DNA from: Euprymna scolopes
Lineage: Eukaryota
Strand: one strand, 5' to 3'
DNA: 61,799 bases
Assembly: GCA_053919585.1 (NCBI GenBank)
Contig: CM132811.1
Shown one piece after another: positions 54,150 through 56,260 of this stretch. Both the position numbers and the translations under genes were made by a program. The first letter of the stretch is position 1. Each line of letters begins with the position of its first letter. A model generated the notes under the pieces. That model made no database searches, was not told the origin of the DNA, and saw only the letters and a program-made list of their open reading frames with translations.

Positions 54150-54628
54150 AATTATTTAGCGTATTCAGACTACTATTCTCATCTTCAGTGTTATTCACGC
54201 AACGTTTCGGTCGGTGTAACCTCCGACCTTCTTCAGGTGTAACTTTTTTAATACGGGAATCTTCCTGAGGAACTGGATCCTTTATTTAATGACAAGGACC
54301 CACGGCGTAACGGATAAAGTAAATTTCAGTTGCATATCACACTGTGCTGGAAATTTCAGGTTCAATCCTCAGTGTTGGCGATACAAAAATCCAATTACGA
54401 ATTACTTAAAATATTTGCCTAGTCATGATTGACGGAACGAGAACAAGTTACCTCTGTGGATTAAATGAATGGTTTCGTTCGAAATTCCGTGCATATTTTA
54501 ACAAGATGCACCTGAAGAAAGTTGGGGATCACATTGGCCGAAATGTTGTGTGAATAACACTCAAGATGAGAACAATTGTCCGAAAAATCCAAATTATGAA
54601 TTCTCATCTAAAAAAAAAGTCAGAAACA
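54150..54628 (+). mobile_element. tRNA-headed hammerhead element, older copy with inverted arms
   Basis: The left arm (minus) reads CAC-CTGAAGA-A-GGTCGG..CCGACC-GAAA-CGTT. A box CGGCGTAACGG 54303-54313, B box AGGTTCAATCC 54358-54368. The right arm has CTGAAGA at 54512 and GAAA at 54540. Confidence 0.75.
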
Positions 54629-54818
54629 CTTTTTTTTTTTTTTTTTTTTTTTTTGAGTAGATTATGCGATCTTTTCTGAGCTTCAAACTTACCGGCTCTT
54701 AATCCCCTCCCGATATAATATCTTTAAAAACATTCCTCAGATTATTTCTTAGTTTAAAAGAGCTATCGTAGCCAAAATCGTGGCAGTACCAAAAGAGGAA
54801 GCTATCAGTTATTAACAA

Positions 54819-55271
54819 CTAGCCTGGATGCTCAGCATTGCCCAGGTGTTTGGAGATGTGTGTTGAGCAAAAATAATAAATAATAAAATTAAAAACAAAA
54901 GTGGTAATAGGCAGACAGGCAGGCTCGAACCCATACCGCGAAGGAGAAGAACTTGAAAAAAAATCGTGATGTCCTTGCTGTTGCGTCCATCGTCATACCG
55001 GAAGTGGCGAAAGTTTCAATTAAGGCTAGTCAATCGAAAAGAAGGGATGACTTTCGACAATATTGGCGAAAAAAGCGACCCCTTCCTGAAGAAAAATGCC
55101 TAGTTGAGGGTGAAGGAATTAATCTTTTTGATCAATTTTTCGATATTTGTCGTCCGAAGGGTCAAGCTTCAAGACAATTCCGATCTCGTAAAAATCCGTC
55201 ACCTCTGTCGAAAGTTTTAGACATACATACATACATACACTTTAACAGACAGGTGAGATTTATATTACAGA
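54819..55271 (-). mobile_element. Non-autonomous Helitron-like element
   Basis: CTAG at 54819-54822, 5' TC at 55270-55271, colinear with 5291-5731. Confidence 0.75.
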
Positions 55272-55737
55272 TTTTGCACATCGTATGCAGGTGTGCTTAT
55301 TGATGTGCCCCCCCAAGTCTGTTGGACGTACATCACTAAAACTGCCTGCAAAAAAAAAAAAAGAAAATGTAAAAATCAACGTCGTCAGTTCCCTTGAGAG
55401 GAATATACATGCGATTGAGCATCATTTGTGAATTTTACATTTCCTAAGAACACCATCCTCCGAAGAAAACTGGCTCAACCCTACCTGGGTGAATGCCACT
55501 ACGGATACCAAGTGTGCTCATATATATTGTAGCATACATCACGCAAATGTTTTTGTTTAAATTTGTTTTTATCGTAATAAACAGTTAATTTAGTCTACAG
55601 GACTAAGAAAGGAAACCACTATGTTTACAATGAGATTTGTATAGGAATTTTCACTTTCTGGTTTTCAGTGTTTATTCTTAGCCTCGTGAATTAATGGTGT
55701 TATCTACACAAACACTAGCAGCAAAAAGTAATTTGGA

Positions 55738-56260
55738 TTACTTGGGTTATTCCGACTACTGTTCTCATTTTGGAGTATTATTTTCACAACGTTTCAGTCG
55801 ATGCCGTTCTAGCGCAAGGACTCGTGGCGTACTGGATAGAATACTAGGTAAAATTCAGTTGTAAGTTACCTTTCTGAAGGTTGAAGGTTTAATCCTCATT
55901 GCATGTTACACTAAAAATACAATTGAGAATTACTTAGGAATTCTACACCATCATGGCTGACCGAACGAGAGCAGGTTAACTCTGCGAATTAAATAAAGGG
56001 TTCTGTTCGAAATTGCGTGTAGATTTTCCACAGAAATATTACTGAGTTTGACAGAAATATTACTGAGATTGACAGAAATATTGCGGAGGTTGACAGAAAG
56101 ATACCCGAGTCTGGCACAAAGATTCTCGAGTTGGACAAGATACACATAAAGAAGGTCGGATGTTACATCGACCGAAACTTTGTGAGAATAATAAAGATGA
56201 GAACAGTAGTCCGAATAATCCAAATAATATGAATTATCAATCCTCATCTAAAAAATTCAG
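55738..56260 (+). mobile_element. tRNA-headed hammerhead element, degenerate copy with internal 21-bp tandem repeat
   Basis: Short inverted left arm; A box TGGCGTACTGG 55825-55835 and B box-like AGGTTTAATCC 55885-55895; GACAGAAATATTACTGAG(T/A)TT x~4 at 56030-56110; decayed ribozyme core with GGTCG/CGACC-GAAA; same 3' terminus as the other copies. Confidence 0.7.

Follow-up and report, generated by a model that had tools for sequence, protein, structure and literature searches.

The three related elements that we studied in a 61,799-nt stretch of Euprymna scolopes DNA (contig CM132811.1; hereafter, the window) are very probably 5′-truncated ends (pLTRs) of Penelope/Poseidon-type retrotransposons (PLEs), in which a long copy is joined to an inverted short copy. 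The hammerhead stems of these elements are paired between families and decay within families. Therefore, selection probably acts only on a few active source elements. Pairing of PLE hammerhead stems across families has already been published, and the stem II covariation proposed by a sequence-only reading of the window adds little to it. The new part is likely to be a Pol III-type promoter in the pLTR.

The elements lie at 45717-46143 (E1), 54150-54620 (E2) and 55729-56260 (E3). Each has two inverted arms, only one of which carries a tail. The long copy of E1 (45717..46021, minus strand) is an untailed solo pLTR of family F1 and runs from 10 nt before the A box (−10 at locus L154) to the inner end of the arm. 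By regex scan, an A-box-like motif is at 46001..46011 and a B-box-like motif at 45948..45957. Its left arm (E1L) contains an intact minimal type I hammerhead (45761..45802; stem II within 45767-99), also on the minus strand. The inverted short copy (46018..46143, plus strand) consists of an arm and a tail of about 30 nt, which was delimited from other copies. It ends in an (AT)n tract and, over 92 nt, matches the left arm at 99% identity. The minimal hammerhead of its arm (E1R; 46024..46065) has stem I CAC/GTG, a core at 46027-33, an extra A at 46034 and stem II GGCCG/CGGCC (46035-39/46050-54), followed by GAAAC and the palindromic ACGT; cleavage is predicted after 46062. These features match those described for PLE hammerheads (PMC4209133).

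E2 and E3 belong to a second family, F2. In E2, the inverted copy (E2L; 54150..54292, minus strand) has an intact hammerhead core (54236-54204) with stem II GGTCG/CGACC (54228-24/54213-09). The long copy of E2, tail included (54294..54620, plus strand), is 68-78% identical to other copies and contains a decayed A box (54303-13), a B box (54359-68) and a decayed hammerhead (54509-50). The inverted copy of E3 (E3L; 55729..55803, minus strand) is followed by a tailed long copy (55818..56260, plus strand) with an A box (55825-35), a decayed B box (55886-95), a AATAAAGGG block (55992-56010), a 21-bp tandem expansion (56030-56143) and a broken core (56146-52). Despite the broken core, stem II of this arm (E3R) is intact, GGTCG/CGACC at 56154-58/56169-73. 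The expansion proceeds in frame-preserving steps just before the hammerhead, and other F2 copies have similar expansions. Two further short fragments of the arm/tail family were observed at 45268-45306 and 48789-48864 (plus strand).

Among genomic copies, the tail is at the left or right of the inner part, and the two 3′ ends are about 30-35 nt apart. Target duplications of about 10-15 bp were found at 23 of 27 tailed two-arm copies (mismatched control: mean 1.8, maximum 5), some of them within microsatellites. An identity as MITE or Helentron was dropped: the arms derive from a PLE pLTR, their junctions vary, and they come with a tail and with long target duplications. The window also contains a 28-kb satellite (16765-44831), in which an AT-rich unit of 44 bp is repeated about 630 times with 95-99% identity, and, at 53725-53860, a SINE-like repeat that we take to be of a kind present in cephalopod genomes.

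The arms were collected from the same genome with E1, E2 and E3 as queries. This gave 194 arm matches at 90 loci, from which 132 near-complete arms were kept. After removal of 2 duplicates, the remaining 130 comprised 54 F1 arms (E1-like, at least 90% identity to E1R) and 76 F2 arms (at most 71%). At two loci (L040 and L043), the end of an RT-endonuclease ORF is followed directly by the entire inner region and arm of E1, and the long copy of E1 aligns over its full length to the DNA behind the stop codon. Therefore, E1 consists of a solo pLTR and a truncated partner in inverted orientation. The stretch of ORF end and pLTR was 94-100% identical in 40/40 scored matches. Several F1 copies have intact frames of 800-880 codons in tandem and inverted arrays; for example, L148, L149 and L153 consist of tandem or inverted pLTR units, as in EN+ PLEs.

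An 879-aa open frame of F1 matched RVT_1 (E 1e-10). Pfam GIY-YIG gave no match to the F1 protein at E≤0.01, and the C-terminal part of this protein is 24-29% identical to the GIY-YIG-bearing protein of another family, F3. F1 thus has the single ORF with RT and C-terminal endonuclease of EN+ Penelope/Poseidon elements, the endonuclease being assigned through the F3 alignment; no such ORF was found for F2. Neptune/Nematis elements are marked by an extra zinc-finger linker that separates RT from EN; as judged by eye, the F1 protein has none. In a FastTree tree of 26 rows, built without named reference proteins, F1 grouped with P0003/5/7/9, apart from F3 and F4. A PDB search gave group II intron RTs only (E 1e-4). 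The anatomy of E1-E3 agrees with the PLE descriptions in PMC8557442 and PMC11167929.

A young F1 subfamily (L135-L153, L384-L413) consists of intact copies that are about 99% identical and share an in-frame deletion of about 18 nt before the hammerhead; it was likely active recently. F3, which was found by the GIY-YIG search, was rejected as the partner of E1-E3 because its pLTR and tail differ. It is a young family of near-identical PLEs (L091-L123) with intact 806-808-aa frames and (AT)n insertion, and its hammerhead core is a U3 variant, TTGAAGA, that retains G8. In addition, L091 (G000:C553) is on a small contig, where a frame resembles, by eye, the N-terminus of bacterial UvrC; this may be assembly contamination.

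F2 has the same layout of head, arm and tail as F1. No ORF-bearing copy was found upstream of 96 5′-complete F2 heads (overlapping loci counted twice), and a further search for an autonomous F2 partner gave F1-type copies in the 27 of 30 loci that were listed. Because an F2 ORF was not found, E2 and E3 may be SINE-like dependants and not pieces of their own autonomous element. According to this explanation, E2 and E3, and possibly the E1-type solos, form a non-autonomous family in which a tRNA-type head is joined to a PLE arm and tail; Pol III would transcribe the solos, the PLE protein would act in trans, and RNA structure would be the sole constraint. The solos retain their own A/B boxes, and 18 of 36 F2 head matches in an unbiased sample start in model positions 1-9, which together with the missing ORF is consistent with such a family. 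SINE-like hammerhead elements of Schistosoma (PMC6765202) provide a precedent. However, the PLE frame is kept open in the decayed F2 arms (n = 57), with stops in 20/57 as compared with 43/57 and 57/57 in the other frames, and a long-lived non-coding SINE would not need it. For F1, no alignment column separates all 54 solos from the 23 ORF-bearing copies, and the differences track the younger ORF-bearing subfamily. F1 therefore lacks the non-coding master, distinct from its partner, that defines a tRNA-derived SINE. We regard this explanation as rather improbable.

The ORF of the PLE begins within the pLTR, at an ATG 110-115 nt downstream of the A box. The frame runs through the hammerhead and the tail, both of which fall within the first ~70 codons of the RT-endonuclease ORF. 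In this frame, E1R encodes PDEGRRVKRPKRCD and E2L encodes PEEGRRLHRPKRCV, and the peptide TPDDGRRSNWPKRCV of P0010 (62% identity, from another source) lies in the same frame, downstream of the Met of that protein. The sequence-only reading had stated that the A/B boxes and a AATAAAGGG..GTTCGA-like block persist while the rest diverges. All three elements have the boxes and the block, but the block of E2 at 54 kb reads AATGAATGG. In E1, boxes and block are on the minus strand, beside the untailed arm. A better reading of the block is that it encodes N-K-G near the beginning of the ORF (N-K-G-L-G-S in E1, at 45839..45857). The divergence of the rest was overstated, as the majority letters of F1 and F2 agree in 65 of 90 arm columns. 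The other open arm frame, with an ATG in AAGATGAG, was rejected: in ORF-bearing copies it meets a stop about 25 codons past the tail.

Next, we consider stem II, for which compensatory changes had been claimed. The quoted letters are present (GGCCG/CGGCC at 46.0 kb; GGTCG/CGACC at 54.2 and 56.15 kb). A minimal type I hammerhead was defined by CUGANGA/GAAA, a base between 9 and 10.1, G10.1-C11.1, a palindromic 15.2-16.2 and a short stem I. It was found in E1L, E1R and E2L, although the middle pair of stem I is broken in E2L, and not in E2R, E3R and E3L. Three of the six arms are not intact, including the cited 56.15-kb arm. That arm, E3R, has ATAAAGA instead of CTGANGA, plus GAAACTTT; E2R (54.5 kb) has AGTTG/TGGCC and GAAAT, and E3L (55.8 kb) is cut inside loop II. 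The change at the free position N7 (CTGATGA vs CTGAAGA) is Asp/Glu in the PLE frame. Rfam gave no hammerhead or tRNA among 43 matches to the window at E≤1, and a search with a young pLTR gave neither.

A paired change in stem II does exist, but it concerns one pair only and is U·G in a third of F2. This is the only stem II pair in which the majority letter differs between the families. It is C-G in 51 of 53 F1 arms, and in F2 (n = 76) it is U-A in 42, U·G in 24, C·A in 6 and other in 4. The 5′ U is nearly fixed in F2 (67/76), and either of the bases opposite it, A or G, can pair with it. In the PLE frame, the two changes are Gly GGC/GGT and Arg CGG/CGA, both of them transitions at synonymous third positions. 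They are the sole synonymous majority differences among 16 shared codons; altogether, 12 of 25 majority differences between F1 and F2 are at third codon positions. Because both changes are synonymous, the pair agrees with structural selection but supports it only weakly. Alternatively, the pairing may be fortuitous, the product of two separate synonymous transitions constrained by the protein, or of a single hairpin template switch. Such transitions are common, and the codon pattern described above is what this explanation expects. It is nevertheless unlikely, since five other third positions on core or stem bases are unchanged, unrelated families with the hammerhead in another frame or before the ATG pair with other letters, and the F2 5′ U is nearly fixed while A and G on the 3′ side both pair.

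The sequence-only reading also claimed compensation in the 3′ hairpin. The quoted letters, AGATGAGG/CCTCATCT at 46.1 kb and AGATGAGAA/TTCTCATCT at 54.6 kb, are there; however, the compensation is an accident of one copy. In E1, the long-range hairpin has 8 bp (46079-86/46120-27, plus strand), and its halves overlap codons QDE and TSS. The hairpin of E2 (54564-54609, with pairing of 54564-72/54601-09, plus strand) owes its extra pairs to a deletion of about 9 nt. In E3 (56.2 kb), a 7-bp hairpin (56195-56249, plus strand) has AGATGAGA/CCTCATCT, with an A·C mismatch exactly at the pair claimed to be compensated. This eighth pair is unpaired in 27 of 32 tailed F2 copies by one count, and the tally for tailed F2 arms (n = 32) is A·C 26, A-T 4 and other mismatches 2. 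The corresponding numbers are G-C 19, G·U 2 and G·A 1 in tailed F1 arms (n = 22), and G·A 12, G-C 9 and A·A 1 in tailed arms at ORF-bearing F1 loci (n = 22). The eighth pair is broken in the young F1 subfamily. Only the 7-bp AGATGAG/CTCATCT is common to both families, and it carries no covariation because it is invariant between F1 and F2. The hairpin folds with z of −2.1 to −2.4 on 55-65 nt (−2.4 for the 61 nt of E1), and its halves encode QDE and (T/S)SS in the PLE frame.

We then compared core and stem positions with other sites. In F1, the two diverged alike (p = 0.81-0.85). In F2, the p values were 0.28 (A/T), 0.93 (CpG) and 0.03 (non-CpG G/C). The non-CpG G/C sites in core and stems of F2 were slightly better kept (0.15 vs 0.19), a difference favoured by the arm profile used for the collection. 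CpG sites of F2 had decayed by 27-29%, in stems and outside alike. The core was intact in 42/54 F1 and 20/76 F2 arms. An excess of double changes was observed at 1/8 pairs (p = 0.028, uncorrected, at a CpG-affected pair). Because core and stem positions diverge like others and the core is often broken, the inserted copies are decaying, about neutrally. Thus, for the inserted copies, the result is the one that the sequence-only reading had named as counting against selection.

The comparison between families gave a different result. We used 14 PLE family representatives, namely F1/F2, F3, F4a, F4b and nine motifs from PLE loci of other animals; these are not independent, as F1 and F2 are kin and so are F4a and F4b. 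With kinship ignored, pairing was found in 40/42 cells for stem II pairs 2-4 (0/20000 shuffles, with a mean of 29.5) and in 38/42 cells for stem I (0/20000 shuffles, with a mean of 18.3). Six distinct rows gave the same result. In a pattern search that demanded no pairing beyond G10.1-C11.1, there were 8886 matches, as compared with 20 in the reversed control. Selection on the ribozyme fold in active PLE lineages is thus supported. The two window families taken alone cannot show it, no selection was seen on the inserted copies, and there was no compensation in the 3′ hairpin.

As a non-coding constraint, the A/B boxes hold up best. In the alignment of F1 and F2 heads, the A box matches at about 9/11 and the B box at 10/10 positions, while the spacers differ in length and sequence. 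The F1 boxes are 55 nt apart (57 nt in E2, F2) and span 64 nt, the span found in the tRNA-Ser genes of this genome. In a regex scan, the boxes were absent from the F3 and F4 pLTRs. An A/B pair downstream of the ORF was found in 0/80 metagenome relatives (27-48% identity), many of which are without that flank.

The 5′ ends were examined in an unbiased set of 30 F1 copies, collected with a query starting at the B box and including the window's own copy. Twenty copies start at −24..−3 of the A box, 6 at +9..+42 and 4 at −94..−328. From the preceding truncation rate, 2.5 of 24 would be expected in the −24..−3 bin. In near-full-length F1 copies (27 among the matches listed), the farthest 5′ ends are at −25 and −35, and the rest are spread. 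In the F4 control, the 5′ ends are scattered between −3 and −1500 relative to the hammerhead (22/24 mapped; some may be alignment breaks). Among copies reaching 150 nt upstream, 8/11 of F4 run on into the ORF, as compared with 4/30 of F1.

A run of four T is the terminator threshold of Pol III. The 3045-nt F1 unit of L401 contains no TTTT (shuffle mean 3.6; zero in 39/2000) and 7 runs of T3 or longer (18.2 in shuffles; 1/2000). The F1 T3+ ratio, 0.28, is below those of all 80 relatives (0.65-1.96), and the Phe codons are 1 TTT to 15 TTC (p = 0.012 vs other two-fold pairs). The ORFs of F3 and F4 contain 14 and 13 TTTT runs, respectively. It should be mentioned that, under synonymous shuffling, the TTTT absence is 0 vs 0.8 (P = 0.41), that 3/80 relatives likewise have none, and that the many T4-free F1 copies are one lineage. 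Non-LTR RT/endonuclease-like frames in the window, recognized by eye at 8947-10704 (+), 47844-48401 (−) and 58231-61261 (+), were T-run controls.

Default ARAGORN detected no tRNA in the pLTR, and at a relaxed threshold it called one but also a spurious gene. The sequence between the boxes was no closer to two tRNA-Ser genes than shuffles were (P about 0.7). A search with RF00005 gave one tRNA cluster (Thr in the loci checked). Large tandem tRNA arrays were also observed, with a Ser-type gene with an altered anticodon stem every ~3.25 kb (C7:171.68-171.97 Mb), a Ser gene with a 152-bp period (C15:27.87 Mb) and a Thr gene with a 144-bp period (C11:1.68-2.16 Mb).

In polyA and single-cell reads from 5 RNA runs, starts did not accumulate at the predicted start site, nor did ends at the cut site. 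The reads are from both strands, about 60% continue into unlike sequence, and most are read-through of dispersed copies. These libraries are fragmented polyA RNA, and their read ends are no real test of self-cleavage. No splice joint in the pLTR was listed in the 5 runs. An intron from CTAAC..CCCCAG before the arm was rejected; there was no joint in the reads, and the young subfamily has deleted the acceptor and kept the frame. The A/B boxes, the 5′ ends and the lack of TTTT together suggest Pol III transcription, which the RNA-seq data neither showed nor excluded.

We tentatively propose, as a possibility well below an even chance, that F1 is an autonomous coding PLE on Pol III, in which the pLTR supplies a tRNA-type promoter for a 3-kb transcript cleared of T-run terminators, internal priming at the first tail gives SINE-like solos, and the hammerhead is dual-coded with the N-terminus. 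The pLTR may instead act as a conventional internal promoter of Pol II, like those of Drosophila Penelope and Chlamys-3, in which case the A/B boxes would be a captured tRNA or SINE relic and the pile-up a Pol II start. This falls only a little short of an even chance. In each of the two characterised PLEs, the pLTR contains a Pol II start and an intron (PMC8557442). Moreover, the ORF needs translation, the TTTT absence is weak alone in view of the synonymous shuffling and the relatives with none, and the region between the boxes is no more tRNA-Ser-like than shuffles are, nor is a tRNA recognized by default ARAGORN or Rfam. In contrast, F1 and F2 share both boxes despite their different spacers, no spliced read is listed across the pLTR, and F3 and F4, which are without boxes, have TTTT runs in their ORFs, with spread 5′ ends in F4. 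A report of a PLE pLTR with A/B boxes or of an autonomous PLE transcribed by Pol III was not found among the papers that could be searched, although the supplements of PMC4209133 and Repbase/Dfam might hold the family.

The elements could be formed as follows; the sequence features are observed, and polymerase, priming and cleavage are inferred. The transcript would start just before the A box of the upstream pLTR. The start may be set by the A/B boxes and hence by Pol III, with a probability of about 60% for the short templates and about 35% for the whole unit. The PLE RT would prime at a nicked AT-rich target and start inside its own RNA at either tail boundary; in PMC11167929, an RT start at two tail boundaries is shown for another PLE. 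A start at the downstream pLTR would give ORF-bearing copies with random truncation. A start at the first pLTR would give a cDNA of about 300 nt back to the transcription start and hence solo pLTRs, whose 5′ ends would pile up because this cDNA stops there. A second, inverted cDNA would complete the insertion. Self-cleavage, as a dimer or assisted by protein, is assumed from relatives. The stem II change may be the cheapest one open to a sequence that both folds and codes, namely two synonymous transitions via U·G. Dead copies would decay afterwards, CpG fastest.

PLE transcription has been characterised for only two elements, both transcribed by Pol II. If our proposal is true, a coding transposon uses a polymerase whose products are believed to be short non-coding RNAs only, and its codon usage is shaped by Pol III terminators. 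It would also show how SINE-like hammerhead repeats of the SM-alpha kind can arise directly from an autonomous element. The proposal can be tested because near-identical intact copies (about 99%) are present in this genome.

The tRNA-derived SINEs with a LINE tail have 5′ A/B boxes, a 3′ end derived from the partner and 5′ ends at the promoter start. Here, in contrast, the partner is a PLE, the head is also present in the autonomous F1, and there is no A-rich tail. The non-LTR (animal) retrozymes, as described in bioRxiv 10.64898/2026.07.22.740005, are similar in being short hammerhead sequences from PLE pLTRs; however, they are head-to-tail tandem repeats, whereas single inverted pairs with target duplications were found here, in the window and at genomic loci. 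Schistosoma SM-alpha and Sj-alpha (PMC6765202) are, like E1-E3, dispersed repeats in which a promoter of Pol III type precedes a hammerhead. They differ in being non-coding and tandem with canonical hammerheads, whereas here the boxes are in the pLTR of a coding autonomous element, the copies are inverted pairs and the tail is that of a PLE. F1 belongs to the same group as the Penelope/Poseidon PLEs with pLTR hammerheads (Cervera & de la Pena 2014, PMC4209133; Craig 2021, PMC8557442; Frangieh 2024, PMC11167929). As compared with those PLEs, no pLTR intron was seen in F1, its unit is depleted of T runs, and its pLTR has A/B-box motifs, just before the first of which two thirds of the sampled copies start.
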